64,000 nucleotides of DNA. It comes from Candidatus Anstonellaceae archaeon. Its GTDB lineage: Archaea > Micrarchaeota > Micrarchaeia > Anstonellales > Anstonellaceae. Below the pieces are notes generated by a model that searched no databases, had not been told where the DNA came from, and saw only the letters and a list, made by a program, of their open reading frames with translations. The position numbers were made by a program, and so were the translations under genes. Every line of letters begins with the position of its first letter. Position 1 is the stretch's first letter. The stretch covers positions 173,668-237,667 of the forward strand of contig JAWAKW010000001.1 in NCBI GenBank assembly GCA_038887295.1. The letters run 5' to 3'. Below are positions 3,390 to 28,577 of the stretch, in pieces.

Positions 3390-3806
3390 TTATTTGCCAA
3401 TCCTGTCTGCTGCAAGGTGCGAGGCCACCCCAACAAATGCGGCAAGGCCTTCTTGCCAACCAAACAGCGCAAAGCCTGCGGCAAAACAAACCAAGGCAGA
3501 AATTAAAGTGTGCGTAATCCCTCTGTGCCTTGGCCTGAAAAGCACCCATGCAGCCCATGTCCCTGCCAAAAGCAAAAAAGCAACCAGCAAGCTTCTAAAC
3601 ATCAATCCTAATGCAATTGCTACAAGCACAAGGAAAAGGCGCATTATTTGAGAAATCTTGCTTGAGTCCAGGTCAATGTCTGGCAAAAGCGAAAAAAATC
3701 CGGAAATTGCGCAGATGCTGGCAAGCTTCCAGCCATCTGCTCCAAGCAACCACCCTAAAGCTGCACCGGCTACCAAACCAAAAAGAAGATGAGCCTGCCA
3801 CTTCAC
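3390..3806 (-). CDS. membrane-bound metal-dependent hydrolase-like protein (DUF457/YdjM-like)
   Basis: Polytopic membrane protein with His-containing motifs (RHRGITHTL, ASHLAADR) typical of the DUF457 family. Confidence 0.45.
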   Translation of the reverse strand: MKWQAHLLFGLVAGAALGWLLGADGWKLASICAISGFFSLLPDIDLDSSKISQIMRLFLVLVAIALGLMFRSLLVAFLLLAGTWAAWVLFRPRHRGITHTLISALVCFAAGFALFGWQEGLAAFVGVASHLAADRIGK

Positions 3807-3815
3807 TCAAAACCC

Positions 3816-4337
3816 TCAGTACTGCAAGCTTTTAACAAACCTCCTAAAGTGTTGCAAATAGCGCCTCATGTGGTGTTCTTGTTCAGATTGCGACATTTTT
3901 GCAAGCTCATAAGAAAGTCTCATAATTTCATAGTATGCCTCACCAAAGGCGGCATCTGAAGTTATTTCATCTTGGCTTGCTATTGAGGTTGCCTCGCACA
4001 GGTCGGCCAAATACTTAAGCTGCTCCAAAGCCTCTCTCCCTTTTTTAGTCAGCTTTAGGCGCTTCCTTGCTGTCAAGCGCTTTCGGATTGCAGAAAAAAG
4101 CATGACAAGATAATAGTATATTTGGTGCAAAATCGTCATTTTGGTTTCTGTCTGCCGCTGGACCGTAAGATCCACAACTATTGGTGCATAGGTTTCCTGC
4201 GGAACTATAAGAAGCGCCTCTGCTTTGGGATCAACAAAGCGTTCATCCATCAACCTGCCAAACTGGTGCCTTCTCCTTTCAACTGGTCCTTCTGGCTTTT
4301 TGAGAATTGGCTGAGGCTCCTGGAAAATCTGTTCCAT
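3816..4337 (-). CDS. hypothetical protein, possibly a PadR/winged-helix-like regulator
   Basis: 173-aa ORF with a basic helix segment KRLKLTKKGREALEQL; it is convergent with island gene 1. Confidence 0.3.
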   Translation of the reverse strand: MEQIFQEPQPILKKPEGPVERRRHQFGRLMDERFVDPKAEALLIVPQETYAPIVVDLTVQRQTETKMTILHQIYYYLVMLFSAIRKRLTARKRLKLTKKGREALEQLKYLADLCEATSIASQDEITSDAAFGEAYYEIMRLSYELAKMSQSEQEHHMRRYLQHFRRFVKSLQY

Positions 4338-4367
4338 ACTGGTCGCTGCTTTTATTTTTGTGTCAAG

Positions 4368-4378
4368 ATTTATATAAT
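4368..4378 (+). promoter_or_regulatory. archaeal TATA box for island gene 1 (leaderless start at 4401)
   Basis: TTTATATAA lies about 25-30 nt upstream of the ATG at 4401, the spacing typical of archaeal leaderless transcripts. Confidence 0.5.
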
Positions 4379-4400
4379 TGATTTTTCACGAAATACACTT

Positions 4401-7400
4401 ATGTTCAAACAAGAAAACACCTCTGTCTATTTTTCTAAAACAACCACACCATATTACTTTACTAGCCTAAACAACTATAAGGAAACACTTAAGGGAACTT
4501 CTAATATAACCATCGGCTTAATTAAAGTAAAAGAAGGAACTCTCAAAGAGATTCTCCAGCTACGTAATTCGTTTGGTTTTACAGAAGATCAAATCAAATC
4601 TTTGGTACCTTTTGGGACTCCTGATAGATCTGCTCCAACAAACATAATTGAAAGCAAAGATTATCTTTTACAAAAATATGGTGATTCCTACAGGATTTTT
4701 AAAAAAAATGTAGATCCTGTAGAAAGCCTCCAAAATGCGCTTTCTCCTTGGCAGATAAAAATAGATAAAGATGTTGCATCTCAAATCGTCAACAACTTAA
4801 TTTCTACAAAAGGAAAAGATTATTCAATAGGCGTTCAATCAAATGGTAAGGATTATGTACTTCGCTTCTCTTCTTTAAGTAATGGAACAACTTATTCTCT
4901 AAGTGTTTTTGAAACAAATATCCTCACAGAACAAATGCGAACTGAGATTGTTTCAAACTTTGAAAATTTTGAAAATCACTATAACTCAAATCCTGATTTC
5001 AAGAAGAAATGGGATAACTTTGCTTTGCTTAGGCCATTTCTTGTTGAAAAGATTATCACAGGAATGCAAAGTGAGATGAGAGAAATTTTTAGAACTTTTT
5101 CAGAAGGTCTTAATCATCACATCATTGCTGAGATCAACAAACCAATAATAACTGAAGGAATCGTTGGTTATGAACAAAAGAATTTGAACCTAAAAAGCAA
5201 TGGTAATTACTATGATATTGAGTTTTTGTCTTCACCAAATATTAAAGCTTTTGAAAATGATCTAAAAAAATATGGATTCAAAGAAGACGAAATCAAAAAA
5301 GCCAAAAAGCTTGACGAAACCACTATTTATTACCTCAATAATAGACCCTATCGTTATTACAAGCACGGTTATTATGAAATAAGAAACGACGGTCAAAGTT
5401 CATTTATTGCACAAAGGACAAAGGAGGGAGAATATGAGCTTATCTTAAGGATTAAGAAATCATACCTGGATGATAACAAGACCCTTAAACTGGGGGACTG
5501 GACTATTAGCAAGGCACAAAAAGATAGTGCAACCTTGAAAATCCCAATTTACGGCCAAAAAGAGGAACCTAACTTTTTCAAAAAGAACATTGAGGCCCAC
5601 ACACTTTATATTAGACCTTTAGATCCTAACTCAATCAAGCAGCTAGAGAAAGAAGGTGTAATATTTGAAGGAGAAGATCTAAAAACAATTGAACAGCTCT
5701 TATACAACTTATTAAAACCTTCTATGTTCGATTATTTATTAAGAAATAAGATCAAAACCGCAATCTCAAACATTAAAGATCCAAAATACGGCTTTTGGGA
5801 TATTGATAGTGGTGATTCTAGATTACAGATTAAAAAAATAGAACAGGGTAGAAAATTCCAAATAATAGATAAGCTTTTAATAGGAAAACAAATCGAAAAT
5901 GGAAGGCTTATAGGAAGCTTCCAATATAATGTTTCAGAAAAAAACGGCCGCGTCTGGCTTTCAACCTATCGTTATAGCGGGCTTTACTATTTAGATCCTT
6001 ATGCTATTGGAATGTTTTCTACTGCTGTCAAAGGATTTGTAGAAGGATTAAGCGGAATAGTTACAGATCCTATTGAATTTTTCTTACCTTTTTTGAAAAG
6101 ACCAAATGCTGTTGTCGAAAATGCAGTAAAGAACCCTACGCCTGAAAATATACGAAATGCAGCTTTCGCGTTGGATATGTGGATGGTAGATTCACTCTTG
6201 ACATCAACAGGATATGGTATAGTTATAAGCAAGGCCGCTTTAAAAGTTGTTGGACGGAGCCTTTCAAAAGCAACCTTAAGAAAGTTAGGTGAAAAGATAA
6301 CTAATGGGGGTATAATAGATAATCTTGCAAACCACCATGATGAAATCTTCAAAATTTTGATGGATACCAATCTAAAAAATGGGTCGTCAGTAGATAATAT
6401 AATAATCAAGTACGTCGGCGAGGATATATATCGTAAAGATCCAATCCAAGCGATCCAGAAGTTTTTTGATTCTCCTGACCCTCTTTTGATGCCTTTGAAA
6501 AGAGAAGTAGCAGAAGCACTCGGTGTCGATCTCACATTTTCTAATCTTGCCAAAGGAGCTGCAACAGCTGTATCTAAAACTGTGACTAATGTTGAAAGAT
6601 ATGCAAAACCCCTCCATCATTATTTAGACGATTGGACAGAACACGTCGCACAAAAGTTGCTTAGCGTTGACAAACAAGAGTTTTTACAGATAGATTTCTT
6701 ACCTTCTATTCAGTCATCCCTTGAGAAACTTCTAAAAAATAAACTGCAGAATCTAAAGATTGATATCAGCGAAATTTTGTCAAGAAAAGAAGTTCTTGAT
6801 GCGTATGAAAAAGCACTCAATTCTCTAAGTGCAGAAGATATTATAGAATATCTGAATGCAATTAAAAAGGAACTAATCAAAGAACTCAAAAATTTGAAAG
6901 CAGATAAAGAAATTATTGACTACGTTGAAAAAGGCATCACTTCTCCTCAGATAACAGGCAGGCCATTAGGCTCTGTTGGGCGGAAATTAACTGCGGAAGG
7001 TGCTCTCCTAGGTGAAATGTTAGAGGATATCATGCTGAAAGCGCAAATCAAAAGGCGTCTAATAAGCTCATTAAAAGACATTAGTGAGGAAGAAATCGGC
7101 CGTCAGGTAGATAATGTTTGTAAGAACATTAATTCTTGGAAAAGCAAGGAAGATTACATTAACCAATTCAAACAACATGTCAAAAACCTTGATGGAGTAA
7201 GCAAACAAATAATAGATGCAGTAAATTCTCTCAAACCACAAGAGATTCAAATCATTCCCATGGGTGCTCTTGTTTCAAAACAAGCAATTAAAAAAACTAA
7301 AAATTTACCCAGTAGTAGTGGAAAGCCTCAATTCCTCAATAGTATTCAAGATGCAAAAGACTCATACTCAATCCATATGTTTGGGGATGAACAAATCTTG

Positions 7401-8423
7401 CTTGGCTCACTTGCAAAGAAGGCAGATAAACTCGTCGACCTTCCAAACGAAATTATAAAAATGGAAGAATATCTTGCAAGATTCGTAGGCTTAAAAGACA
7501 GTCGCATTCTTAGGTTTATGAATGAAGACGATTTTATCTCCACTTTAAATAAAACTAAATATTCAGAAAAATACAAAGAATATTTAATAAAATCGTTTAA
7601 AGACCTTCGAGATCGATATATTCAATACACCTCAGGTAATTCTATAAGCGAAGCTTTCTTTATCGATTGCTCTTCCTTTGTTCAAAAAATGAAGAAAGCA
7701 AAGAATTTCAATTTCTTGAAGAATAGGAATCGACTGCAAACTATTATGCATGAACATCTATTCGATGCGATGAACGCAGTAAACGCTTATACAAGACGCC
7801 AAGAACTTATACAAAGTTTCATAAGTAAAATGGATGAGGCCAAAATTGAATTTAACAAGCAAATAAGAGACAAACTAGAAAAAGGGATAATCTCAGGTGA
7901 AGAACTAAAGAAGCTAGAAGATGAGATCATAAATAAGATAACTACTAATCAACAGTTGCAGCAAACACTCTCTGAGATCAGGAAACTCTCACTACAAATC
8001 GATTCATTTATCAAGGATACCATGTCGTATAAGTTCTTTAAACTCATGACTGATCTAGAATCATTCAGCAAAGTCGTGTCAGCTGTTATTAAGATCGGCA
8101 ACTCTATCTTCAAGAGTAGTAAAGAATTTTCCACCTTAATAAATAACTATCCCGAGCTTAAGATAACCATTATGGGATTAGTAATGTCAGAATATATAGA
8201 AGCATTATCGCAAAAAAAAGTCCCCCCAATTGACGATCTCATTAGAAATGCAAACGGACAAGTTTCCTCTCCAACTATCCTAAATAAACGCGGAGCCAAA
8301 TCTACAATACCAGAAGAATTGGAAACTCCAGAAGAATTGGAAACTAAAAATTCAGGTCAAGGTGAATCGAAAAGAATAGATATAGATCCCAATCAGAATA
8401 AATATCTAAAACCAGATTTTTAA
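4401..8423 (+). CDS. giant ORFan protein 1 (1340 aa), N/K-rich with a long coiled-coil region in its second half
   Basis: Long uninterrupted frame. The start was placed at the ATG at 4401 because the upstream extension in the ORF track overlaps the convergent gene 3816..4337 and a TATA box sits at -28. There is no signal peptide, no P-loop, and no family I recognise. Confidence 0.75.
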   Translation: MFKQENTSVYFSKTTTPYYFTSLNNYKETLKGTSNITIGLIKVKEGTLKEILQLRNSFGFTEDQIKSLVPFGTPDRSAPTNIIESKDYLLQKYGDSYRIFKKNVDPVESLQNALSPWQIKIDKDVASQIVNNLISTKGKDYSIGVQSNGKDYVLRFSSLSNGTTYSLSVFETNILTEQMRTEIVSNFENFENHYNSNPDFKKKWDNFALLRPFLVEKIITGMQSEMREIFRTFSEGLNHHIIAEINKPIITEGIVGYEQKNLNLKSNGNYYDIEFLSSPNIKAFENDLKKYGFKEDEIKKAKKLDETTIYYLNNRPYRYYKHGYYEIRNDGQSSFIAQRTKEGEYELILRIKKSYLDDNKTLKLGDWTISKAQKDSATLKIPIYGQKEEPNFFKKNIEAHTLYIRPLDPNSIKQLEKEGVIFEGEDLKTIEQLLYNLLKPSMFDYLLRNKIKTAISNIKDPKYGFWDIDSGDSRLQIKKIEQGRKFQIIDKLLIGKQIENGRLIGSFQYNVSEKNGRVWLSTYRYSGLYYLDPYAIGMFSTAVKGFVEGLSGIVTDPIEFFLPFLKRPNAVVENAVKNPTPENIRNAAFALDMWMVDSLLTSTGYGIVISKAALKVVGRSLSKATLRKLGEKITNGGIIDNLANHHDEIFKILMDTNLKNGSSVDNIIIKYVGEDIYRKDPIQAIQKFFDSPDPLLMPLKREVAEALGVDLTFSNLAKGAATAVSKTVTNVERYAKPLHHYLDDWTEHVAQKLLSVDKQEFLQIDFLPSIQSSLEKLLKNKLQNLKIDISEILSRKEVLDAYEKALNSLSAEDIIEYLNAIKKELIKELKNLKADKEIIDYVEKGITSPQITGRPLGSVGRKLTAEGALLGEMLEDIMLKAQIKRRLISSLKDISEEEIGRQVDNVCKNINSWKSKEDYINQFKQHVKNLDGVSKQIIDAVNSLKPQEIQIIPMGALVSKQAIKKTKNLPSSSGKPQFLNSIQDAKDSYSIHMFGDEQILLGSLAKKADKLVDLPNEIIKMEEYLARFVGLKDSRILRFMNEDDFISTLNKTKYSEKYKEYLIKSFKDLRDRYIQYTSGNSISEAFFIDCSSFVQKMKKAKNFNFLKNRNRLQTIMHEHLFDAMNAVNAYTRRQELIQSFISKMDEAKIEFNKQIRDKLEKGIISGEELKKLEDEIINKITTNQQLQQTLSEIRKLSLQIDSFIKDTMSYKFFKLMTDLESFSKVVSAVIKIGNSIFKSSKEFSTLINNYPELKITIMGLVMSEYIEALSQKKVPPIDDLIRNANGQVSSPTILNKRGAKSTIPEELETPEELETKNSGQGESKRIDIDPNQNKYLKPDF

Positions 8424-8464
8424 ATATTGATTGAAATATTGAATAAATGTGAAGAGGTGTTCAT

Positions 8465-11035
8465 ATGAATCAAAACACACAACAAAAATCTGTCAATCAT
8501 ATTGATGAATTTAATAGATATGCCAATTGGTGTATGTCCTTTTCTACTAAATATGGCAATTCTTTCAGGAAAGAAGGAGACAATATTGAAATAGTTGATA
8601 ACAGAACTGAAAGCAATAAAATACAGATAACAAAAAAAGAAATCGGAGACTTATTTTATAATTTCAAGCAAGTCAAATATCATTTTGACCAACTTACCAA
8701 ACAAGGTCTAAATAACGAAGAAATCAAGGAGTTATTCTCTACTCTAGAACTATGGAAGTATTTCTTCTTTGGCAACCTACCGTGGGATACTGATCACAAA
8801 GCCAAAGATGTAATTTCCTCATTTCAAAACATGAAAGATCTTTTTATGTATAAAACTTGGGTAACAGAATTCAAAGGTGCAAAAAATGACCAAGACAAAA
8901 TAAATCTTTGGTACAATATCAAAAAGGTTTTCAACTTGGCAGATAAGCATGTGAAGGATAAAAACTCTACTGTTGAATCTCTCTCTAATCAAGTCTATAA
9001 TGATATAATTAAAGATGTTGAGAAAATCAAAAATAGATATTTTAAAGGTCTTGATTTAAACACATTACATAATGAGAAAGAAAAAATCATAGATTCATAT
9101 AATAAATCCGTAATAGCTTCTTCTCCGACAAGCAAAAAGACCAATCAACCAGCACCCTCAAATATAGTGCTAACAGCAGAGCAAATATACAAACAAAATA
9201 AATACCTCCAAGCAGCAGCAACAGTCGATTTCGATAATGCCCCAAATGCAACAAGAAGACTCTTGGTTTCATCAGGTCTTCTTACTGAAGAACAGTTGGA
9301 AAAACCAAATGAGACCATTCAAGCAATATTTACTTCGTTTTATACCATGAAGCTTGTTAGAGAAGAAAACGCTACAAAAAAGACGATACAACTTCTCAAA
9401 TCCATCATGGAAAAGGACGGGGTTGAAATCACCCCGGAAAACATCCTCAAATATCTATGGAACGAACAAGAACAAAGATCAAGGCTTGCCGCAGCGATGG
9501 TAGGCCAGCAAATTGGCAATAAAAAAGTAAGTCAAGGAAATGCAAAGTGGTGGGAAGGCATATTTAAGATAGTCTATGAGCGTTCTGGGGCAACTCAAGT
9601 GCAAGTTCCGACTCTCCAAAGTGAGCATAATGCTCTTCTTCGCCAGGCAGAAGAGCTCATTAACAATGCAACAGACTACCAAAAGCAGCAGCCAGCATTC
9701 CAATCTCTCAACACTATTTACCAGGCAAATAAAGATTTATCTCCAACAGACATTACACAAGAGACAAATAATGCACTCAAGAATGCGATTGAAGAAGCCA
9801 AAAAGGCCCCACTTTCTCCTGAACAGAAGTTAGAGGCCCAGTCTCAGAAGCGACAGCTCAATGTCATTTATTCCTACAACAACGAGTTTGCCAATATAGA
9901 TCATCCATTGGCAAAGCACCTTCACAAAGAGTTACAAAAAGATACAGGCTATTTTTCAATCATAGCATCATCTCTGTACCGAAAGATAGATCAAGAAAGT
10001 ATAGCGGCAGCATCTATAATAGCAGAAGATTATGTAAATGCAGTCAAGTCAAACATTCAATTTTTTGCAAAGTTTTATGACCAGTCAAAGTCTTTCGGAG
10101 AGAACGTAGTTCAATATTACAGAAATCTTCAAGTATTAGATTTGATTTCATTGCTTGGAAAAAGAGTGCCAATTGATAATCAAGGCAATACCGCACTTTA
10201 TACTACCACAAGCTATTTCATTGATATGGGTTATATAAAGAAAGAAGGTGAAAAATTTGTTGCAACAGATGACGCCCCGCAATTGCTTAAAAATATGATG
10301 AAAAGAGGATCTTTGGTAGGAACCGCAGAGCAAATACTAAATCAAGACGCATTTGAGATCCTTGCGCATTTTGGTCTTGCAACTATTGACAAGAAAGGCA
10401 AAGTGAGTCTGGATGAAGCAGCATTAAATAAGCTCTCCAACGAAGAGCAAGAGATACTAAAGAACTTTGTAAATAAGTACAACTCTGACAAAACAGTTGC
10501 AATATACGAAAGTGAGCCAGGCAAGTCTTCGCCCGCAGAAGTTATGGTTAAGCTTGTAAAAAGTTATATTCAACCTTCACCAGAAAATATTACTGAAAGA
10601 AAAGAAACAACAACTACTCAAACGCCTCCCACAAAGAAAGAAGAACAACCAACAACTCCACCACAGCCCACCCCTCAGCCACCCATCACAGGCGAAAAAC
10701 CTGAGAGCACGCAATTACCACCAGAACAGACGAGAATAATAATTGGAGATGCTTGGTTCGAAAGTAACGAAGCCAGCACTTATAGATATAATAATGAATT
10801 CCAAAACATAAGAGGTTTGGAGAAAATACATGAGATACTAAGCAAACAGTGGGGTGAGCTTGTAAATCAAGTCAAACAGAAGCTTGGAAACGATGAAGTT
10901 CTAACTTTGCAAAAAATCCAGAATTTTGTCAATACTGTAATATCTGATGACATGCTAAAATCCTATTCTCAAAGTTATTTAACTAATATAAATTCTCTAT
11001 CTAATTACATTGCAGCTATGGAGATTAGAAAATAG
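8465..11035 (+). CDS. giant ORFan protein 2 (856 aa) with a Thr/Pro/Gln-rich linker
   Basis: GAGGTG Shine-Dalgarno 6 nt upstream of the ATG and a 41-nt gap after gene 1 indicate an operon. The low-complexity TTTTQTPPTKKEEQPTTPPQPTPQPP segment lies near the C-terminus. Confidence 0.75.
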   Translation: MNQNTQQKSVNHIDEFNRYANWCMSFSTKYGNSFRKEGDNIEIVDNRTESNKIQITKKEIGDLFYNFKQVKYHFDQLTKQGLNNEEIKELFSTLELWKYFFFGNLPWDTDHKAKDVISSFQNMKDLFMYKTWVTEFKGAKNDQDKINLWYNIKKVFNLADKHVKDKNSTVESLSNQVYNDIIKDVEKIKNRYFKGLDLNTLHNEKEKIIDSYNKSVIASSPTSKKTNQPAPSNIVLTAEQIYKQNKYLQAAATVDFDNAPNATRRLLVSSGLLTEEQLEKPNETIQAIFTSFYTMKLVREENATKKTIQLLKSIMEKDGVEITPENILKYLWNEQEQRSRLAAAMVGQQIGNKKVSQGNAKWWEGIFKIVYERSGATQVQVPTLQSEHNALLRQAEELINNATDYQKQQPAFQSLNTIYQANKDLSPTDITQETNNALKNAIEEAKKAPLSPEQKLEAQSQKRQLNVIYSYNNEFANIDHPLAKHLHKELQKDTGYFSIIASSLYRKIDQESIAAASIIAEDYVNAVKSNIQFFAKFYDQSKSFGENVVQYYRNLQVLDLISLLGKRVPIDNQGNTALYTTTSYFIDMGYIKKEGEKFVATDDAPQLLKNMMKRGSLVGTAEQILNQDAFEILAHFGLATIDKKGKVSLDEAALNKLSNEEQEILKNFVNKYNSDKTVAIYESEPGKSSPAEVMVKLVKSYIQPSPENITERKETTTTQTPPTKKEEQPTTPPQPTPQPPITGEKPESTQLPPEQTRIIIGDAWFESNEASTYRYNNEFQNIRGLEKIHEILSKQWGELVNQVKQKLGNDEVLTLQKIQNFVNTVISDDMLKSYSQSYLTNINSLSNYIAAMEIRK

Positions 11036-11104
11036 CGCATACATCCTAAAGAAATCTCGTGGAATTGATTAGCTTTATATTAATATTATATATAATTTAT
11101 AAAC

Positions 11105-13384
11105 ATGAATCAATACAAGCTAATCCAATCCAAAAATGAAACCATAAAGGATATTTTAGAAGGTATCAAAGATAAAAAAACCAAAGACGATGTCAAAAAT
11201 GTAATCAACAATATCAAAGATGATTACAAATATCTAAAAGATTTCCTTGTAGGTGTTTATCATCTCCAAAACTTTAATAGTATAATCCTATCCCTCATCA
11301 AGCTTTATGATAAAGATCCAAATAATTTTCGACAAAATATCGAGTATCTCCACTCAGTTTTGCTGCAAAAGGATATAAACAAATTTAGTGAAGAGTTAAG
11401 CTCTTTAACAACAAGCACCACTCAGATTTTAACAACAAGCAGCACTCAGATACCGCTGCCAAAGTCCGCTTCAAATTGGTATCTGATTGGTATGTCCCTT
11501 TTCTCTGACAAACCATTTTCTCCACGGTATTCTCCCATGCCACACAAACCTTCCAGAATATGGACACCTTTCGATCAGAGGATGCAACAGATTATGTACG
11601 GAGATTTAAATCAATCCTTCATCCAAGAATATAATGTTCAAGCATGGCCCTTCCAACTTGATTTTCCAGAGCGATATCTAAATCTTTTTAGACCTACTCG
11701 TGTGAGATATCCATTTTTAGTTACTGGATATTTCACGGGAGGAAGTCTCGTGAATCTTAATTTTAACTCAGGTAATATTGATACATTTTCTCTTATAGAT
11801 ACTGCTCACTTAGTCACAGGAGTGAATGTTCTCAAAAATAAATTAATCATAAATCAAGCAGCCATAGCCTTTAAAATGCTTCAAGGAACAACTTCTCTAT
11901 CACGTATTGAAAGGCACACGGATTTATCATCTAAACTGGATCTGCTTTTTAGGAATGGGGAAAAAACTACAGGTCAAATGCTTGTATTCCTTGAAAATAA
12001 ACGTTATGGCATACTCCAAGGCTACTATTACGACGGCAAAAGCTGGTTTGCATCAGATTTGGTCATGAGAGATGGAAAAATCATCTCTGGTGGAACAGCC
12101 CAAGGCGTTCTTCAGGGAGATTCTTTGGCAGGTTTATTTAATTACAATAAGCTAGGTGAGAATGACACTTTCTACGTAGTGCTTTACTCTAATTCTTTGG
12201 GGGCAGGTGTTGAAGCACAACAAAACACCAACCAAAAGCTAATCTCTTTCTTGAAGAATCTGGACGATTTTTCAGTTGAAGTCGGAGTCTTCTCTTTAGA
12301 GAGAGGCTATTTCGGTCAAGATGTTGATAAAGCTCAAGGTGGTATAATTGGGTTTGGCAACCAAAACTTTCATGTTTCTACATTTGTCGGTTCAGAGCAT
12401 TCTGAAGTTAATATACTTGGACTTGCAGCTGCTGCACAACGCACTGCAGCATCATTTTTCATAAGAAAAAATGAGGAAGGGGATATCACTCACGGAAATA
12501 TCAACCTTTCTACTTCTAAAAAGATAGGAAATACCACAATAACTTTTTCATCAAGAGTGAAAGGCTCTAAAAGAAGCACAGAGGGCCAAGGAGCTATCGA
12601 GGTTAGAATAGGAGAGGACGCAGATGCAACTATCATCAGATTTGGTTATGATGGTATCAGTCAGGTCGATTTCTTCAAGCGGTCTGCAAACTTCTTTAAT
12701 AGCCAAAATATAACAGACACAAGAAGCCTCATCAACGCAATCAATGCTCTTCTTTTAGTTACGCCCCTCGAAAACTTTCCTTATCCCTTAGCACAAGTGG
12801 AAATTGAAAAGGATGGAGGAAGAATCACATTATCCAAGTTAAAAGAAGGAGGAAGCGGATTCTCCTACGAAATAAAAGATTTTATGGGCATGAAAAAAGC
12901 ATTTTCCTCATTAGCTTTGACACCAAAGGGCAAAATCCTTAATTTAGGGTTTGATGTTGACCATAATAATCAACTAGTATTGCAAGTAGGCAACAAGAAT
13001 GTTGCTCTTGGCACCAGAGTAAAAATCGGAGAAGGTAAAATAGTCGGATCGGCTGGATGGGAACAAGGTTCTTTTAAGACCACTTTTGGATATAGTGAGA
13101 AATTAGGAGATACATCTGTTGAATCGGCTATGGTTACAGGTAAAAGTCCACAAGGTAACTATTGGGGGGGCCAGCTTAATATTTCTTATAAGATTGATGA
13201 TAATGTAAATCTTGGAGGTTCTGTTGGAGTTCTAAAGTTCAATAATATCACATACTTTTCAGCTGGCAGCAACTTTAAGATCAAGAATGACTGGGGGGAA
13301 TTCCAAGCGGGATTTGTCTTTATGTTCTCGAAAATTTCACCCCTCAACTATTTCTTCTCTATCAATTATGGCTCTAGAAAATAG
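11105..13384 (+). CDS. giant ORFan protein 3 (759 aa) with a beta-rich, beta-barrel-like C-terminal half
   Basis: The C-terminal roughly 400 aa show alternating hydrophobic/Gly-Ser-Asn-Thr patterning (GSVGVLKFNNITYFSAGSNFKIKNDWGEFQAGFVFMF). An AT-rich TATA-like stretch lies immediately upstream. Confidence 0.75.
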   Translation: MNQYKLIQSKNETIKDILEGIKDKKTKDDVKNVINNIKDDYKYLKDFLVGVYHLQNFNSIILSLIKLYDKDPNNFRQNIEYLHSVLLQKDINKFSEELSSLTTSTTQILTTSSTQIPLPKSASNWYLIGMSLFSDKPFSPRYSPMPHKPSRIWTPFDQRMQQIMYGDLNQSFIQEYNVQAWPFQLDFPERYLNLFRPTRVRYPFLVTGYFTGGSLVNLNFNSGNIDTFSLIDTAHLVTGVNVLKNKLIINQAAIAFKMLQGTTSLSRIERHTDLSSKLDLLFRNGEKTTGQMLVFLENKRYGILQGYYYDGKSWFASDLVMRDGKIISGGTAQGVLQGDSLAGLFNYNKLGENDTFYVVLYSNSLGAGVEAQQNTNQKLISFLKNLDDFSVEVGVFSLERGYFGQDVDKAQGGIIGFGNQNFHVSTFVGSEHSEVNILGLAAAAQRTAASFFIRKNEEGDITHGNINLSTSKKIGNTTITFSSRVKGSKRSTEGQGAIEVRIGEDADATIIRFGYDGISQVDFFKRSANFFNSQNITDTRSLINAINALLLVTPLENFPYPLAQVEIEKDGGRITLSKLKEGGSGFSYEIKDFMGMKKAFSSLALTPKGKILNLGFDVDHNNQLVLQVGNKNVALGTRVKIGEGKIVGSAGWEQGSFKTTFGYSEKLGDTSVESAMVTGKSPQGNYWGGQLNISYKIDDNVNLGGSVGVLKFNNITYFSAGSNFKIKNDWGEFQAGFVFMFSKISPLNYFFSINYGSRK

Positions 13385-13405
13385 AATTGATTGTTCTTCT
13401 AAAAA

Positions 13406-13477
13406 TGGACCCGGGGGGATTCGAACCCCCGGCCTCCTGCTTGCAAAGCAGGCGCGCTACCACTGCGCCACAGGCCC
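13406..13477 (-). tRNA. tRNA-Ala(TGC)
   Basis: Manual fold gives acceptor GGGCCTG/CGGGTCC with the G3:U70 Ala identity pair, D-arm GCGC-AGTGGTA-GCGC, anticodon loop TTTGCAA and T-loop TTCGAAT. Total length is 72 nt and a T5 tract follows. Confidence 0.85.
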
Positions 13478-13536
13478 ACGCCAACGCTTGTTTTTTTCAA
13501 GGAAGCATTTTTATATCGAACTGCCAAACTTAACGC

Positions 13537-13872
13537 ATGGGCCTGCTTGAGCTAATCAAGAATATGCTTAAGCCTAAGTCCCCACTTGCTTCTCAGAAGG
13601 CAAAATGCCCAAAATGCTCTGCCCAGCTTGAGCTTGGCGCAGAGCGCTGCCCTTCATGCGGAACTCATGTAGAATCGATGTTTGCTATTTCCTGCCCGAA
13701 ATGCAAGGAGCAAAATCCACTTAGGGCAGAAAAATGCTCCAAATGTGGTTTTTCGTTTGTCCAGCAACAGGTAGGAACCGGGAAAGTGATTTATATCTGC
13801 CCAATTTGCGGATACCGCGCCGATTATTTCATGCTCTCATGCCCATCTTGCGGAGTAAAATTTGTAAGCTAA
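13537..13872 (+). CDS. multi-zinc-ribbon protein
   Basis: Four CxxC...CxxC pairs (CPKCSA..CPSCG, CPKCKE..CSKCG, CPICG..CPSCG). Confidence 0.55.
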   Translation: MGLLELIKNMLKPKSPLASQKAKCPKCSAQLELGAERCPSCGTHVESMFAISCPKCKEQNPLRAEKCSKCGFSFVQQQVGTGKVIYICPICGYRADYFMLSCPSCGVKFVS

Positions 13873-14273
13873 TCTGTAAGCCTAAATTTGTAGCCGTAGT
13901 GTATAAGACCTTCTTCAGAATCTTCAATTATTCTTCTGAATACCATTTCAACTTTATCGCCTATACTGACTTTTTTTGCTCCTACAATTTGGGCAGTGAG
14001 CCGCGGTCCCTCATCAAGCTCTACAATTGCCAAAATATAGGGCACTTGCTTTTCAAATCCAGCAGGCCCGGCGGTCACCTCCGTAAAGGAATATATTTTG
14101 CCTTTGCCTGAAAATTGCCTGCTTTCTATTTTTCCTTTCCTGCGGCACTTTGGGCAAAGCTTTCTTGCAGGAAAGTAGCTGGTTTGACAATTTCGACAAT
14201 ATGTACCAACCAGCCTATATCTTTCTGGTATCCTTCTCCAAGTTATTGCAAGGTTTTCAGATGGCAAGTTCAT
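13869..14273 (-). CDS. DUF35 OB-fold/Zn-ribbon protein, the thiolase/HMG-CoA synthase partner
   Basis: CxxC..CxxC ribbon (CRNCQ...CPKCRRKG) and position downstream of the thiolase form the archaeal DUF35-thiolase-HMGCS trio. Confidence 0.75.
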   Translation of the reverse strand: MNLPSENLAITWRRIPERYRLVGTYCRNCQTSYFPARKLCPKCRRKGKIESRQFSGKGKIYSFTEVTAGPAGFEKQVPYILAIVELDEGPRLTAQIVGAKKVSIGDKVEMVFRRIIEDSEEGLIHYGYKFRLTD

Positions 14274-14278
14274 CCCCC

Positions 14279-15439
14279 CTAAACTTTCCTGAATATATGC
14301 ACCACCGCAGTAGCTCCAGAGCCGCCTACATTATGAGTCATGCCAATTTCACAGTCTTTTACCTGCCTGCCTTCTGCCTTTCCACGAAGCTGCCAGACAA
14401 TTTCCACAGCTTGCTTTACCCCAGTTGCGCCAACCGGGTGGCCACAACCTTTCAGCCCTCCAGAGGTGTTTACTGAAATTTCTGCATTAAGTGCAGTTTT
14501 TCCCTCCTCTGATGCCTTCCCGCCTTCACCCTTTGGGAAAAAGCCCAGATCCTCTATTGCCATAATTTCAGCAATCGTAAAGCAGTCATGAACTTCTACA
14601 ACATCAATGTCTTTTGGGGAGAGTCCGGCTTGCTGATAAGCTTTTTTTGCTGCAATTTTCGTGCTTTTTAGCTCAGTCATGTTTTCCCTTGAGTGAAGTG
14701 CAAGCACATCCGAGGCCTGTGCAGATGCGACTATTTCAATCGGCTGCTCACAGTAGCGCTTTGCCTTTTCAAGCGGCATCAGAATTGCTGCTGCAGCGCC
14801 ATCTGTAATTGGCGAGCAGTCAAAAAGCTTCAGCGGAGATGCAATGTATTTACTTTTCATCACAGTTTCCACAGTTATCTCATTTTGGAAATGAGCATAC
14901 TTGTTTTTGGCGGCGTTTGCATGGTTTTTAACTGCAACTGAAGCCATCTGCTCTTCTGTTGTGCCGTACTGGTGCATGTGCCTTCGTGCCATAAGAGCAT
15001 AAATTGCAGGAAAAGTTGCTCCCATAAAAAGCTCCCATTCTTGGTCACCTGCTCCACCAAGTGCAGAGGCAACTTCATTGCCAGGGGTGTCAGTCATCTT
15101 CTCCACCCCACCAACCACTACGCAATCATGCATGCCAGAGGCAACTGCCAAGTATCCTGTCCGCAGTGCAACCCCCCCAGAGGCGCAAGCCGCCTCCACT
15201 CTGGTAGATGGGATGGGAGTAAGACCCATAAAGTCTGCCACCAATGCACCTACATGCTCCTGCCCAACCAGTGAACCAGGGGCCATGGTCCCAATATAAA
15301 GTGCGTCAATCTCTTCCCCATGAAGATTGGCATCCTCTACCGCTCTTACTCCTGCTTCAATTATCATATCTCTAAATCCACGTGTCCATTCTTCCCCGAA
15401 TTTACTCATCCCTACGCCAACTATTGCAACTCTTCTCAT
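14279..15439 (-). CDS. acetyl-CoA acetyltransferase (archaeal thiolase)
   Basis: Thiolase-fold motifs (ACASGG-like EAACASGGVA, CSPITDGAAA, GHPVGATG). Confidence 0.85.
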   Translation of the reverse strand: MRRVAIVGVGMSKFGEEWTRGFRDMIIEAGVRAVEDANLHGEEIDALYIGTMAPGSLVGQEHVGALVADFMGLTPIPSTRVEAACASGGVALRTGYLAVASGMHDCVVVGGVEKMTDTPGNEVASALGGAGDQEWELFMGATFPAIYALMARRHMHQYGTTEEQMASVAVKNHANAAKNKYAHFQNEITVETVMKSKYIASPLKLFDCSPITDGAAAAILMPLEKAKRYCEQPIEIVASAQASDVLALHSRENMTELKSTKIAAKKAYQQAGLSPKDIDVVEVHDCFTIAEIMAIEDLGFFPKGEGGKASEEGKTALNAEISVNTSGGLKGCGHPVGATGVKQAVEIVWQLRGKAEGRQVKDCEIGMTHNVGGSGATAVVHIFRKV

Positions 15440-15443
15440 ACAA

Positions 15444-16499
15444 TCACATTTTCAGCTTGCCCCTATTCTTTACATAAATTGCATAATCCACATACTCTTT
15501 GTCATTTATGTAGTCTTGTAGGCGCCTTCCTTTGTACGCTTCCCTTTTCTGCAGAAGTACATCAGTTACCCGAATAGCAAAGGCATCTGAGCCTGCACCT
15601 GAGCCAAAAGAAGTCAGAAGAATTCTCTGCTCAGGCTTTGCAATATCCAACACACCGCAAAGCCCAATCAAAGAAGCGCCAGAATACGTGTTGCCAATTA
15701 TCGGAGTGAAAAGCCCTGGCTTGACTTTTTCTGGGTCAATTCCCATCTTTTTTGCCGCCTCAATTGGGAATTTGCCGTTTGGCTGGTGAAATACGAAATA
15801 ATCATAGTCTGCAGCCCGCGTCCCGGTTTTTTCAAAAAGCGCCTGCGTAGCCCCCATCACATGCCTAAAGTAAGCAGGCGCACCGGTGAACCTGCCCCCA
15901 TGAGAAGGGTAGTGCGCATGCTGCTTCCTCCAAAAATCAGGGGTATCAGTGGTAAATGAGCACGTAGCCTCAATTTCTGCAACAATCTCCTCCTTTTGTT
16001 GCCCAATCAGGAACGCGGCTGCCCCTGCAGAGGCAGTGTATTCCAGCGCATCGCCAGGTCTTCCTTGTGCTGTATCCGAGCCAATCGCAAGCCCGTATCG
16101 TATCATCCCTGCGCCCACCATGCCCATGCACATCTGAATGCCAGCGGTCCCTGCCTTGCAGGCAAACTCCAAATCCGCTGCGGTAAGGTTGGGGGTTGCG
16201 CCTATGGCTTCTGCCACAATAGTTGCAGTCGGCTTGACCGCATAAGGGTGAGATTCAGAACCAACATATACCGCGCCAATGGCTTCAGGATCCAGTTTTG
16301 CAAAAGCAATTGCATTTCTTGCAGCCTCCACTGCAAGGGTGGCAGCATCCTCGTCTATAGCTGGAACTGATTTTTCCATCACCCCAAGACCCTTGGTTAT
16401 CCGCTCTCCCTCTTCTCCCCATACACGGGCTATCTCTTCAGTCTTTATTCTGTATTTTGGAACATATGCACCATATCCTACTATTCCAACTGATTGCAT
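15444..16499 (-). CDS. hydroxymethylglutaryl-CoA synthase (archaeal type)
   Basis: The N-terminus [15 protein letters not shown] and the length are typical; it is coupled to the thiolase by a 5-nt gap. Confidence 0.85.
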
Positions 16500-16507
16500 G
16501 GTTTCAC

Positions 16508-17819: not shown

Positions 17820-19598
17820 TCAGATTTTTTTGGTGAGAGAGAGTATTTCATAAAGCAGCTCAAGTTCTTCCTTTTCTAATTGGCCTTTGGCTTCAAGCTC
17901 GCGTGCTTCGCTTGAGACAATGTAAGTGTAAAGGTAATCATGCTCAGAAAAGGATTTGCCACAAACTGCGCCTTCAACCGAGATTGCAACCTGCTCCCCT
18001 TTTTTTGCAAGCTGAAGCCCTTTGCCTTCCTTTTGTATCTCTCGCACTTCACCTACAATCTCTCCGGCAGCAGTCATCAGCCTCACTCCTTTCTTGAGCT
18101 TGCCTGCAACCACTTCAATGCCAAATATCGCTGGCTTGCTTGAGCGGAAGGTGCATCCCGGAAGCACCAAAATTTTTGCAGGCAAGGGAAGCCGTTCTGC
18201 AGCAGCCTTTGCCTGGTTTTTTTTCTGCTCCTCCACCCAATCCAAATATTCCTGGCAAAGCGAATAAATCACATTAGAATGGAATATTTTCACCCCAAGC
18301 CTTGCCGCCTCCTCATACGCTTCTTCTTCCACCCCAATATTGAAAACCAGCACCACGCCAAGATATGGGTTGGATGAAGCCACCACAGAAGCATCTATCA
18401 CATCCTTGCGCGTTACCTTACCTATGCCTGCCCTTTTTACCTCCACCCCGCTGTTAGAAAGCAGTTTGCGCAGCGCCTCAAGCGAGCCGAGGGTGTCTGC
18501 CTTTACAATCACCCCGCTTTTGCCGGTGTCTTGCAGTATTCGCTTTATCATTGCGTCAATCTCTGCACCTTCACCTTCCTGGCCTACAAGGACAGGCGAG
18601 CCAGGAAGCGCGTCCTGCAGTCCAGGAGCATATACTTTCACCCCGCAGGCTGCAATCACCTCATCTATGTAATCGTACTTTTCCCGGTCGGTTGGCCGAA
18701 GCTTGGGCTTAAGCAGCGCCCGCACCCGGACAGAGGCAGCACCATTTATTGTCCCAAAAACTATCTGGTCGTTTTTGCGAAGCTTTCCTTCATACAAGAT
18801 GATATCTATGGTGGTGCCCAATCCCTTTTCCTCCTTTACCTCAAGCACCGTTCCTCTTGCAGGCTGATCCTCCTTTCTGGAAAGCTCCCGCTCCAGGAAT
18901 TTTTGTGCAAGCCCCGCCACAGTCAGCAAAAGCTCAGGCACGCCCTCAGAAGTCCTCGCAGAGACAGGTATGATTGCAATCTGCCGTGTAAAGTCCTTTA
19001 TCCTGTCAAACCTCTCTGCTGAAAATCCTTCCTCTACAAGCGAGCCTACTATTCGGTATATCATCTCCTCAAGCCTGGCTTGCACTTGCGGCTTTTGGCT
19101 TTCAATTGAGGAAATGATGGAGCATCCGCCCTGCTGGCTCTTCCAGCCTTCCACCAAATCAATTTTGTTTGCAGCAACTACAAAAGGAGTCTTGAATTGC
19201 TTCAGTATTGCCAGGCTCTCCTTTGTCTGCGGCTGGAACCCAGCTGTCAAATCCACCACCAATATTGCAATGTCTGCAATGCTCCCCCCGCGCTGGCGCA
19301 GGTGAGTGAACGCCTCGTGCCCTGGAGTATCTATGAAAAGGAGGCCTGGAATGGTAAATTTCGGAAGGGAGCTGACTGCTTTGCTGCAGGCAGCCTTTAT
19401 GTCCTCAAGCGAAATCTCTGAGGCGCCAATATGCTGGGTTATTGCGCCTGCTTCTTTTTTTGCAACATTTGTTTTGCGTATCGCATCAAGAAGGGTGGTC
19501 TTGCCATGATCCACATGGCCCATCACCACTACAATCGGCTGGCGAAGCGACATGCCCTCACCTGTTTTCCCCCAAGTAGCGCCCAGAATATCCAGCAT
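17820..19598 (-). CDS. infB: translation initiation factor aIF5B (IF2 homologue)
   Basis: GTPase motifs GHVDHGKTTLLD and DTPGH; 592 aa. Confidence 0.9.
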   Translation of the reverse strand: MLDILGATWGKTGEGMSLRQPIVVVMGHVDHGKTTLLDAIRKTNVAKKEAGAITQHIGASEISLEDIKAACSKAVSSLPKFTIPGLLFIDTPGHEAFTHLRQRGGSIADIAILVVDLTAGFQPQTKESLAILKQFKTPFVVAANKIDLVEGWKSQQGGCSIISSIESQKPQVQARLEEMIYRIVGSLVEEGFSAERFDRIKDFTRQIAIIPVSARTSEGVPELLLTVAGLAQKFLERELSRKEDQPARGTVLEVKEEKGLGTTIDIILYEGKLRKNDQIVFGTINGAASVRVRALLKPKLRPTDREKYDYIDEVIAACGVKVYAPGLQDALPGSPVLVGQEGEGAEIDAMIKRILQDTGKSGVIVKADTLGSLEALRKLLSNSGVEVKRAGIGKVTRKDVIDASVVASSNPYLGVVLVFNIGVEEEAYEEAARLGVKIFHSNVIYSLCQEYLDWVEEQKKNQAKAAAERLPLPAKILVLPGCTFRSSKPAIFGIEVVAGKLKKGVRLMTAAGEIVGEVREIQKEGKGLQLAKKGEQVAISVEGAVCGKSFSEHDYLYTYIVSSEARELEAKGQLEKEELELLYEILSLTKKI

Positions 19599-20046
19599 CA
19601 GCTTTCTCAGACAGCCTCACAATCACAAGCTGCGCCACCCTTGCATTCCTGTGAAGCACAATCCCTTTTGGGTTGTGCACCACAAGAAGCGATTCGCTTC
19701 TTCCGTGGTATCCAGGGTCCCACAAAGCACAAGCAATATCCGCCCCGCATCTTAGAAGCGAAGAGCGAGGGAATCCAAATGCAGCGCAGCCCAGAGGAAC
19801 CCTAACATACTCATTGTAAATTATTTTGTAGCACCCCTGCGCTAGCCTCACTCTTCCTTGCTCAAATTCAATCTTTTCTGTTTTGCTTATTTTGCGGGAG
19901 GAATTATCATAATCTATCTCGCCTTCGCTTTGGAAGGCATGCACTTCCTGCAGCGTCAAATCTATACCCGCAGGTTGGACTTGCACCTTTTCATTTATTC
20001 CCTCCACAAATTTGGCTGCCTGCTTCCCCCTCAATATCATGCTCAA
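19558..20046 (-). CDS. dUTPase / dCTP-deaminase-family paralogue
   Basis: The QPAGIDLTL motif and beta-barrel dUTPase-like length; its 3' end overlaps the aIF5B start by 41 nt. Confidence 0.6.
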   Translation of the reverse strand: MSMILRGKQAAKFVEGINEKVQVQPAGIDLTLQEVHAFQSEGEIDYDNSSRKISKTEKIEFEQGRVRLAQGCYKIIYNEYVRVPLGCAAFGFPRSSLLRCGADIACALWDPGYHGRSESLLVVHNPKGIVLHRNARVAQLVIVRLSEKADAGYSGRYLGENR

Positions 20047-20077
20047 AGTTTAAGCCGCACGTTATTAAAAATCTGCT

Positions 20078-21085
20078 TTAAAAGGCAGAGAATCCCAAAA
20101 CACATACAAGCGAAATCAGCAGATTGTCATCTTCGTTTTGGAGGCTTTCTGCAACTGCCGCCAAAACAGCAACCAAAAGCGCCTGCCAGCCGAAAGCAAC
20201 AACCGGCAGGCAGGCTGCCACAAATGAAACACTTCCTTCCACTGTTTTCTTCTTGTTGTAGGGCAGTAGCACCTTCCCTCTTCTGCCTATCAAGGTGCTT
20301 GCCGCATCCCCGGCACCCAATATGAAAATAGAAGCCACTATTTCATCCGTTAGGGGCAGAAGAGTGATTGCCGCAAGAGCACCTGCAAAAAGGGTGATTG
20401 CTCCATGTCCTGGGATAGGAGAGGGGCGGTCAAAAAGCGCAAGGAAAAAATCCGCAATGCCGACCCCAAAAATATGAAGCCAAGCAAAAATCATGCCCAA
20501 TGCAAGTGCTGTTCCCACCACCAACTCACCTGTATGCGCACCAAAAAGCCAAACAAGCGCAGCAATCAGCATACAAGCTGCAAAGTGGGCAAATTGCCTT
20601 GCGTCTTCAGCAGGGGCAAGTGCGCCAAATTTTGGCTGCAAAAAGGCTGGCCGATATATGTATTGCGCAAGCATGCAGGCAAAAATGGATAAAGCAAGTC
20701 CAGCGGCAACTTCAGCAAAAGTATGCACCCCAAGATAAATGCGAGAATACGCAACCAGCCATGCAAAGGCAAAGTAGCCCAAAAACAACCTGCTTGTAAG
20801 GAAAGCAGTTGCAACGCTGAAAGCTATAAGGGAGTGCAGGGAGGGAAGTGAGTAGTCTTGGGGGCACGCTACTGCAGAGGCAGCCTCTGCGCAAGGCCTC
20901 TCCTTTGCAAGAAGATTCTTAAGCCCGAACCCAAGCAAAATTGCAGCCATTAATGCAACTAAAGCAAATGCAACCCTTTTTTTCTCTCCAACTACCCAGG
21001 CAAGCCCAAGGAGAGCTGTAGTGGTTGCCCCAAAAGAATACGGGTGGTGCAAAAGCAAAGCAGTAGCATAAAACAGGTCAGGCAT
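20078..21085 (-). CDS. PAP2-family membrane phosphatase (polytopic, fused C-terminal membrane domain)
   Basis: PAP2 motifs (KERPC..., PSLHS, SRIYLGVHT) within a polytopic protein. Confidence 0.6.
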   Translation of the reverse strand: MPDLFYATALLLHHPYSFGATTTALLGLAWVVGEKKRVAFALVALMAAILLGFGLKNLLAKERPCAEAASAVACPQDYSLPSLHSLIAFSVATAFLTSRLFLGYFAFAWLVAYSRIYLGVHTFAEVAAGLALSIFACMLAQYIYRPAFLQPKFGALAPAEDARQFAHFAACMLIAALVWLFGAHTGELVVGTALALGMIFAWLHIFGVGIADFFLALFDRPSPIPGHGAITLFAGALAAITLLPLTDEIVASIFILGAGDAASTLIGRRGKVLLPYNKKKTVEGSVSFVAACLPVVAFGWQALLVAVLAAVAESLQNEDDNLLISLVCVLGFSAF

Positions 21086-21102
21086 AAATTTGCTTTTGGC
21101 CG

Positions 21103-22953: not shown

Positions 22954-23017
22954 GCTGATTTTGTGCTGGAAAATGTTTATAAGGTTGTGTTTAAAAGTGA
23001 ATTTACACGTAAAATGG

Positions 23018-23539: not shown

Positions 23540-23558
23540 TTGTGCACATCAATTTCTT

Positions 23559-23825: not shown

Positions 23826-23841
23826 CAATGGATTTGTCATT

Positions 23842-24564: not shown

Positions 24565-24566
24565 AT

Positions 24567-25978: not shown

Positions 25979-25979
25979 C

Positions 25980-26902: not shown

Positions 26903-26964
26903 CGAAAACCGCAACAGAGACAAAAAAGCCTCACCCCTTGCTTCAAGACGCTCCATTCTTTATT

Positions 26965-28577
<1,613 letters not shown>

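Follow-up and report, generated by a model that had tools for sequence, protein, structure and literature searches.

A position-fixed locus of giant proteins beside tRNA-Ala in Candidatus Anstonellaceae, probably of the replacement-type hypervariable kind

Three giant genes that adjoin a tRNA-Ala gene in Candidatus Anstonellaceae archaeon (Micrarchaeota, DPANN) are probably one local allele of a replacement-type hypervariable locus, an operon of giant proteins that keeps its place on the chromosome and would be maintained by recombination and diversifying selection. They lie in a stretch of 64,000 nucleotides (contig JAWAKW010000001.1 of assembly GCA_038887295.1, positions 173,668 to 237,667 of the forward strand), called the window here and numbered from its first letter. 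A preliminary description, made from the letters of the window alone, had singled out an AT-rich island of about 9 kb with three open reading frames (ORFs) and had read its placement at a tRNA 3' end as the mark of an integrated element, decayed or fixed. The ORFs are ORF1 (4401–8423, 1340 amino acids), ORF2 (8465–11035, 856 aa) and ORF3 (11105–13384, 759 aa), all on the + strand. Comparison with a sister strain and with related genomes gives their position a different meaning.

Results

A cassette is exchanged between two nearly identical strains

The sister strain L001 is a second metagenome-assembled genome (MAG), from the sample QQ_201907, whose thiolase is 100% identical to that of the window; both MAGs come from hot-spring metagenomes. 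Compared by blastn, the two are 98.5% identical in DNA over 4218–10572; over 10573–13404 they share no DNA similarity except for one 94-nt match at 71%, and identity returns to 98–100% at the first base of the tRNA and stays at that level to the end of the thiolase gene (~15.4 kb). Both breakpoints are sharp, one at 10572, at the Pro/Thr linker of ORF2, and the other at 13404, at the 3' end of the tRNA. The swapped cassette (10573–13404, + strand) takes in the end of ORF2 (its linker and C-terminal domain), ORF3 as a whole with its promoter region, and the 20-nt spacer before the tRNA. At the protein level, ORF3 of L001 (772 aa) is ~30% identical to ORF3 of the window and the two ORF2 tails are ~35% identical. 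Synonymous divergence (dS) climbs toward the cassette, from 0.0085 in ORF1 to 0.017 in aa 1–415 of ORF2 and 0.17 in aa 416–700, is saturated beyond, and stands at 0.06–0.09 in the genes across the tRNA; this climb is the trace that recombination leaves around a polymorphism kept for a long time.

Within the ORF3 family, identity is independent of host distance: all pairs compared (21 of 21) are 23–34% identical, while the host thiolases are 82–100% identical. The alleles thus far exceed their carrier strains in age, and they move between lineages. The ratio of non-synonymous to synonymous divergence (dN/dS) is 0.12–0.36 in the genes of the locus, the highest value being that of ORF2 aa 416–700, as compared to 0.02–0.17 in housekeeping genes; for ORF1, which is 99.6% identical in the two strains, it is 0.18, a value that rests on 12 changes only. 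These ratios, together with ORFs of 759 to 1340 codons that remain intact in 35%-GC DNA, show the giant genes to be functional.

The site is occupied in every related assembly that covers it

Related loci were gathered with a thiolase probe (one genome per species), together with contigs that encode ORF3 relatives. All 11 further assemblies covering the site carry co-directional giant genes that converge on tRNA-Ala, and none of the 11 has an empty site. Where both flanks are assembled, the locus is bounded by cysS, YdjM and the conserved hypothetical gene h173 on one side and by tRNA-Ala, a Zn-ribbon gene, an OB-fold gene and the thiolase gene on the other. Both flanks are documented by the window, L008 (on the h173 side), L081 and L084; in the other assemblies that extend to the right flank, this flank is the same, and the L085 assembly consists of giant genes and tRNA only. 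More distant Micrarchaeota (thiolase at most 78% identical) have other genes at the site.

The occupants vary in number and length. Given in the window's orientation, the giant genes of L001 encode 1340, 846 and 772 aa. Those of L081 encode 144, 811, 910 and 758 aa, and in this genome the entire cysS-to-aIF5B neighbourhood is repeated (cysS, h136, YdjM, h207, the giant genes, Zn-ribbon, OB-fold, thiolase, HMG-CoA synthase, helix-turn-helix (HTH), dcd and aIF5B). L083 has 1021+, 975, 1315 and 567+263 aa, its last gene being in two pieces; L085 has 560+ and 758 aa on a short contig, L082 (644+ aa) and L005 (629+ aa) each stop at a contig end, and L084, a long-read contig with frameshifts, shows fragments. 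The remaining assemblies have 429, 266, 571 and 1466 aa (L004), 317, 1021 and 1512 aa (L006), 896 and 1429 aa (L008, with an h173 homologue as boundary) and 817 and 1351 aa (L011).

In the window, L001, L005 and L081 to L085, the tRNA is adjoined by an ORF3 homologue (recognised in L085 by HMMER only), whose stop lies 4–20 nt from tRNA-Ala in the window, L001, L081, L082 and L085. In L081, which is another species, an ORF2 homologue holds the same slot as in the window, and the operon's first gene is preceded by a TATA box in the same position. The ORF3 family is present in 8 assemblies and the ORF2/B family (described below) in at least 3–8, with constant order and orientation. The tRNA-adjoining giant genes of L004, L006, L008 and L011 have no detectable similarity to ORF3.

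An identical or near-identical tRNA-Ala adjoins the giant genes in all of L001, L004, L005, L006, L008, L011 and L081 to L085. ARAGORN reported no tRNA-Ala in most of the relatives, owing to introns, and blastn recovers it in every one. The h173/ORF1 junction is contiguous in L001, and L001, L081, L082 and L085 all show an ORF3-family gene joined to tRNA-Ala. Since each type of junction is found again in genomes assembled independently, a mis-assembly of the block's edges, against which the preliminary description had advised a check, is unlikely.

In every genome examined the giant genes are GC-poorer than their flanks, with differing margins. They are nearly host-like in L081, where GC at third codon positions (GC3) is 0.59–0.64 vs 0.65–0.73, and extreme in L085 (GC3 0.22–0.24). 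Host-like composition of conserved genes, which the preliminary description had held to speak against an island, is thus found in part, namely in the ORF2 and ORF3 homologues of L081.

The block in the window is compositionally distinct and filled by three genes

The abrupt change in composition reported from eye-counts is confirmed by sliding windows. GC content is 35.3% at 4401–13384 and 45.5% in the rest of the window, where the lowest value among same-sized windows without block overlap is 0.419. In steps of 500 nt, GC is 0.31–0.41 over 4500–13000, 0.45–0.53 in the left flank and back at 0.43–0.53 by 13500–16500 on the right. GC3 is 0.30–0.33 in ORF1–3 and 0.41–0.59 in most of the window's other genes; three ORFs richer in AT lie at 0.33–0.38. 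Codon fractions differ likewise between ORF1–3 and the other genes (TTA, 0.23 vs 0.04; GTG, 0.09 vs 0.39; CTG, 0.05 vs 0.20; AGA, 0.52 vs 0.24), and the composition shift is partly one of synonymous codon choice, not of amino-acid content alone. As a separate observation, a milder AT-rich stretch lies at 22000–26000 (GC 0.38–0.43) and includes an ORF at 24678–25712 with GC3 of 0.36.

Exactly three long intact ORFs, all on the + strand, fill 4401–13384, as had been described, save that the ORF1 ATG is at 4401 and not at 4402. They are separated by 41 nt (ORF1–ORF2) and 69 nt (ORF2–ORF3), and 20 nt separate the ORF3 stop from the 3' end of tRNA-Ala(TGC), which is turned towards it. Upstream of ORF1, a TATA-like box, TTTATATAA (4369–4377, + strand), can be read ~25–30 nt 5' of the ATG; the same TTTATATA element, with GGTCGCTG before it, is found 5' of the first operon gene in L081. 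This box is probably the ORF1 promoter and would yield an operon transcript that is leaderless or has a short leader. ORF1 and ORF2 look like an operon, as first proposed, because the gap between them is only 41 nt and a Shine-Dalgarno-like GAGGTG (8454–8459, + strand) precedes the ORF2 ATG by 6 nt, and ORF2 is probably co-transcribed with ORF1; similar GGTG/GAGG sites stand 5' of inner genes in the equivalent operons of relatives. ORF3 probably has a promoter of its own, given the TATA-like box TTTATATT (11074–11081, + strand) ~27 nt 5' of its ATG, and may thus also be transcribed separately.

The proteins themselves offer few handles. ORF1 is rich in K, I and L. ORF2 is composed of a conserved core (aa 235–420), a Pro/Thr/Gln-rich linker (~aa 705–757) and a C-terminal domain of ~100 aa, which carries a Y-x-Y-N-N-E motif that is repeated at aa 469. 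More fully, the internal repeat reads Y-x-Y-N-N-E-F-x-N-I...H..L at aa 469–492 and 773–796, and both the L001 allele and the L081 homologue, L081_910 (in its C-terminal domain), keep this motif. A hydropathy scan of ORF1, ORF2 and ORF3 found no transmembrane (TM) helix or signal-like N-terminus, cysteine is present in at most trace amounts, and a motif scan found no catalytic motif of substance and no real P-loop, in agreement with the first reading of the sequence. A P-loop candidate, GYYYDGKS, was rejected as a weak match that sits in a predicted beta strand.

An N-terminus of the form M-F-[LVI]-[FL]-[QY] occurs in giant genes of several relatives (L081:7259, L083:3056, L011:18960, L008:11908 and L004:9752). 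Among 499 ORFs of at least 100 aa from 15 loci, only these five begin in this way, and all five are giant genes of this locus; L081:4728 would be a possible sixth if a GTG start is used. This N-terminus could be a sorting or processing signal. In the window, ORF1 begins with MFKQ, and ORF2 and ORF3 with MNQ.

ORF2 and ORF3 belong to very small families restricted to the clade

None of the three proteins has a meaningful match in Pfam, PHROGs, PADLOC, NCBIfam or the PDB sequences, and the relatives' giant proteins have no family matches either, save that L006_16874 has TPR repeats and L083_1021 a weak DUF4198 match. ORF3, which is annotated in NCBI as a hypothetical protein (locus tag QXT25_01015, of a 442-kb contig), is one of 8 family members, each a singleton cluster, that a full HMMER pass recovered from 1.84 billion representatives. 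Six of the eight are placed in Micrarchaeota/Anstonellaceae by source name or recovered locus and two are on unnamed metagenome contigs; all members with a recovered locus occupy this same site. In L081, the ORF2 homologue (L081_910) is 35% identical over aa 235–420 (E 2e-32), matches again at the C-terminus (E 4e-10) and shares the ORF2 layout of a linker followed by a C-terminal domain. A weak profile link joins the ORF2 family to the B family, which is the second giant gene of L083, L011, L006 and L008 (hhalign 38%, E 3e-4); otherwise, profile-profile comparison of ORF1–3 with their positional counterparts in L004, L006, L008 and L011 gave nothing significant.

ORF1 was found in this species only, in the window and in L001. 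In a word-indexed search of 5.8 billion proteins, drawing on at most 8000 candidates, ORF3 matched nothing but itself, whether the query was its sequence alone or a 3-sequence profile, and ORF1 matched nothing, a negative that is weak because of this bound on candidates and because ORF1 itself is missing from that collection. Neither ORF1, when started at 4401, nor the counterpart in L001 is present in a collection of 15 billion proteins that does include ORF2 and ORF3 of both MAGs; in public records ORF1 may be uncalled, started elsewhere or flagged as a pseudogene. ORF1 has no relative in the viral contigs, metagenome contigs and phage records searched. Scans of viral contigs (IMG/VR) gave no match to ORF1, ORF2 or the ORF3 family, nor were relatives found in two scans of metagenome contigs (JGI included), in INPHARED phages or in PLSDB plasmids (by tblastn for phages and plasmids). 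In the searches run, ORF1–3 have no sequence similarity to anything outside the clade. The three genes had been described as ORFans; the label fits ORF1 only, ORF2 and ORF3 being members of very small, clade-restricted families.

A low-confidence model of ORF3

An AlphaFold2 model of ORF3 from the single sequence is useless (predicted local distance difference test, pLDDT, of 35). From the alignment of the 8 family sequences the model reaches a pLDDT of 45 overall and of 55–79 in aa 350–510. At this low confidence, it depicts a helical bundle (aa 10–103), an unstructured region (~104–280), a beta-meander (280–518), two helices (520–551) and a second beta-meander (645–756). Foldseek aligned this model, at its pLDDT of 45, with outer-membrane beta-barrels at TM-scores of only 0.1–0.3; BFVD matches, at ~0.1, were discarded. 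At the sequence level, the N-terminus of ORF3 is a polar helical region with no signal peptide, and the C-terminus (...INYGSRK) carries no aromatic insertion signal.

Flanking genes, tRNA genes and other features of the window

Both flanks are made of ordinary archaeal core genes. On the left stand cysS, two small hypothetical genes, YdjM (3390–3806, assigned by Pfam) and h173 (3816–4337, - strand), which is divergent from ORF1. YdjM and h173 together form the left anchor of the locus. An h173 homologue (40% identity) borders the giant genes in L008, the h173/ORF1 junction is identical in L001, and L081 carries h207 and YdjM at the place of h173 and YdjM. On the right, a Zn-ribbon gene is followed by the trio of OB-fold, thiolase and HMG-CoA-synthase genes, an HTH gene, dcd and aIF5B.

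Between the block and the Zn-ribbon gene lies the conserved right anchor, the intronless tRNA-Ala(TGC) (13405–13478, - strand; called by ARAGORN and Rfam), at which the cassette swap has its right breakpoint. This tRNA also lacks an intron in L001, L082 and L085; it has one in L004, L005, L006, L008 and L083 and apparently two in L081 (12293–12507). In more distant relatives, the exons of the intron-split tRNA-Ala are identical to those of the window. Rfam reports further tRNA genes at 58816–58910 (+ strand), which ARAGORN missed, and at 54565–54650 (- strand), which ARAGORN misread as having a 4-base anticodon; both exceed 71 nt and are probably intron-bearing.

An archaeal 16S rRNA gene lies at 26964–28577 (- strand) and accounts for a local GC peak at 27–28 kb. 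At 1614 nt, as compared to the 1478 nt of the Rfam model, it probably contains an insertion; no 23S gene adjoins it within the window (Rfam). A second patch of divergence from L001 lies at 18000–21500, where DNA identity falls to 70–84% amid 93–100% identical DNA and dS reaches 0.84 in aIF5B and 1.27 in the ORF after it. This suggests that recombination has brought imports into housekeeping genes as well.

Discussion

How a fixed site can hold such different genes in nearly identical strains is, in our view, best explained by replacement: we think it likely, with moderate confidence, that the window carries the local allele of a position-fixed giant-protein operon that is maintained by recombination and diversifying selection. 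The conserved flanks would act as homology arms, with the tRNA gene on the right and, on the left, either h173 or the operon's conserved 5' part; by homologous recombination through them, lineages would exchange cassettes, whole or in part. What keeps such old and very divergent alleles in circulation would most likely be diversifying (negative frequency-dependent) selection. On this view, the allele in the window would owe its low GC and foreign codon usage to an AT-richer part of the pool, from which it was imported or in which it has long resided; since the GC margins of relatives vary from near-host to extreme, the strong deviation in the window fits an allele from an AT-richer branch. We hypothesize that the three proteins build one assembly, that the C-terminal domain of ORF2 docks onto ORF3, given that both are replaced together, and that ORF3, with its predicted helical head and two amphipathic beta-meanders, is the variable specificity part that would meet a partner cell, host or virus.

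Flexible genomic islands generally have an atypical, low GC content, and so does this locus. A locus of this kind is not without precedent among archaea: for Haloquadratum walsbyi, among others, flexible islands are described that keep a fixed chromosomal position, occur in very divergent versions among similar genomes, diversify through homologous recombination and contain genes under purifying selection (PMC4535781). The locus resembles these replacement-type islands in all four respects. It differs from them in content: the H. walsbyi islands hold recognisable S-layer, glycoprotein and envelope biosynthesis genes and involve mobile elements, whereas the locus here encodes giant proteins alone, two to four of them, which lack a signal peptide, TM helix or known domain, and has no mobile-element genes. 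Thus, the evolutionary behaviour matches known replacement-type flexible islands, while the content, domainless giant proteins in a DPANN archaeon, does not.

Several points weigh against this interpretation. The main obstacle is that the giant proteins have neither signal peptide nor TM helix, so that surface exposure, the usual reason for such hypervariability, is conjectural; domain searches of ORF1–3 also found no surface-protein domains. ORF1 has no relatives outside the species, and because the tRNA-adjoining genes of L004, L006, L008 and L011 lack detectable similarity to ORF3, the argument that this is one and the same locus is partly positional only, and the site could there hold the unrelated cargo of a hotspot. 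The GC3 shift (0.30 vs 0.41–0.59) could come from transfer outside the clade. Selection is deduced from a pattern, in a species of which only two genomes are available, and confidence in the ORF3 model (pLDDT 45) is low.

Alternatively, ORF2 and ORF3 might confer specificity on an apparatus of Micrarchaeota, so far undescribed, that spans the envelope or makes contact with partners. ORF3 would then be an archaeal beta-barrel or amphipathic beta-sheet protein that, after non-classical export, inserts into or docks onto a membrane or an incoming host structure, and alleles ~30% identical would set the range of hosts or partners. One candidate would be the barrel-shaped docking platform without assigned genes that was seen by cryo-electron tomography (cryo-ET) in the Micrarchaeote ARM-1 (PMC11329633). 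We regard this reading as unlikely. ORF3 differs from the outer-membrane beta-barrels (TamA/BamA, LptD, porins and autotransporter translocators) in lacking a signal peptide, a C-terminal aromatic signal and sequence similarity to them, and to our knowledge no outer membrane has been demonstrated in the organism.

The architecture of ORF2 also calls polymorphic toxins to mind. In CdiA-CT/CdiI, Rhs and LXG loci, a large conserved body is followed, after a linker, by a variable C-terminal module that is swapped together with the downstream gene. Here too, the ORF2 body is conserved, the breakpoint lies at a low-complexity linker just before the C-terminal domain, and the downstream gene is co-replaced; ORF2 would then be a delivered body with a swappable C-terminal effector, and ORF3 its protector or receptor. 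That the locus works in this manner is nevertheless improbable. In polymorphic toxins the exchanged modules are unrelated toxin folds, whereas the C-terminal domains of the window, L001 and L081_910 are mutually homologous and form one family with the Y-x-Y-N-N-E...IH..L motif. No toxin, immunity, nuclease, peptidase or secretion-linked domain was found in these proteins, nor secretion-system genes nearby, which leaves the earlier suggestion of a toxin-like tripartite system without support. Directly downstream of ORF2 there is no small cognate immunity gene but ORF3. With its 759 aa this protein greatly exceeds the known immunity proteins in size, and of all members of the locus it is the one best conserved across genera.

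It is quite improbable that the site is a defence hotspot, collecting unrelated anti-virus systems beside the tRNA, with ORF1–3 as one undescribed system. Hotspots of this type that adjoin tRNA genes are well known in bacteria (PMC10250203), and the present site is likewise fixed with variable content, the occupants in L004, L006, L008 and L011 and ORF1 having no detectable similarity to one another. However, there is no PADLOC match in ORF1–3 and no NTPase, nuclease or other enzyme motif, and the content is not random, as the same families recur in the same order and orientation with the promoter in the same place.

We consider it very improbable that the block is what it was first taken for, a decayed or fixed integrative element (a provirus or an island akin to an integrative and conjugative element) at the 3' end of tRNA-Ala that has lost its integrase and attachment (att) sites. 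Some features do point to such an element: as in tRNA-linked islands and proviruses, the block abuts a tRNA 3' end, its GC and codon usage are strongly atypical, and ORF1 is confined to the species. In contrast to such islands, there is no duplicated tRNA end and no empty site. No integrase or recombinase was found, in line with what had been noted at the start: 4401–13384 holds only the three ORFs, which match nothing in Pfam, PHROG or NCBIfam, none of the small genes typical of mobile elements is present, and the neighbours are h173, YdjM and the Zn-ribbon gene. Nor does any att repeat near the block exceed chance level, and a 22-nt probe from the tRNA 3' end (up to 3 mismatches) found only tRNA-Ala itself and another tRNA, at 58.9 kb, in the window. 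Homologous or analogous giant genes occupy the site in 11/11 related assemblies, L081 has ORF2 and ORF3 homologues of near-host composition, and no relative was found in IMG/VR, INPHARED or PLSDB. Because the site is always occupied and ORF3 homologues adjoin the tRNA in relatives, even across genera, the adjacency is inherited synteny; the tRNA is here a recombination anchor rather than an attachment site. As a caution on method, an AT-rich block that abuts a tRNA gene is insufficient to call an integrated element. 

Neutral decay, in which vertically inherited, weakly constrained and fast-evolving genes drift under AT-biased mutation with neither an exchange of alleles nor selection for diversity, would account for giant genes that are GC-poorer than their flanks in every genome and for a dN/dS above that of housekeeping genes (0.36 in ORF2 aa 416–700 vs 0.02–0.17), but it is highly improbable, as ORF3 cannot have fallen to 30% identity in place with ORF1, 3 kb off, at a dS of 0.0085 and the tRNA-side genes at 0.06–0.09, and as the boundaries are sharp, the ORFs of 759–1340 codons intact and the family motifs conserved.

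The replacement reading leaves the question of what such proteins do in an organism of this type. The preliminary description had guessed at a small-genome symbiotic archaeon, and the NCBI source name, Candidatus Anstonellaceae, fits; the role in host interaction that it also suggested is a possibility. The giant, lineage-restricted SPEARE proteins of Nanohaloarchaeota reportedly carry protease, adhesion and nuclease domains together with membrane or secretion signals. ORF1–3 are similar in being very large, lineage-restricted proteins of a small-genome symbiont, with a suspected part in host contact, and differ in having no recognisable domains and no membrane or secretion signals. We know of no genes for the recognition of, and connection to, other cells by DPANN archaea. 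In a cultured Micrarchaeote, cryo-ET revealed large envelope and cytoplasmic structures to which no genes are assigned (PMC11329633). The locus described here is clade-specific and fixed in position, encodes solely giant proteins of unknown families, and bears the signature of a recognition locus, in that old alleles are shuffled between near-identical strains. It is therefore a concrete and testable candidate for what sets partner or virus specificity in Anstonellaceae, at the level of the strain.

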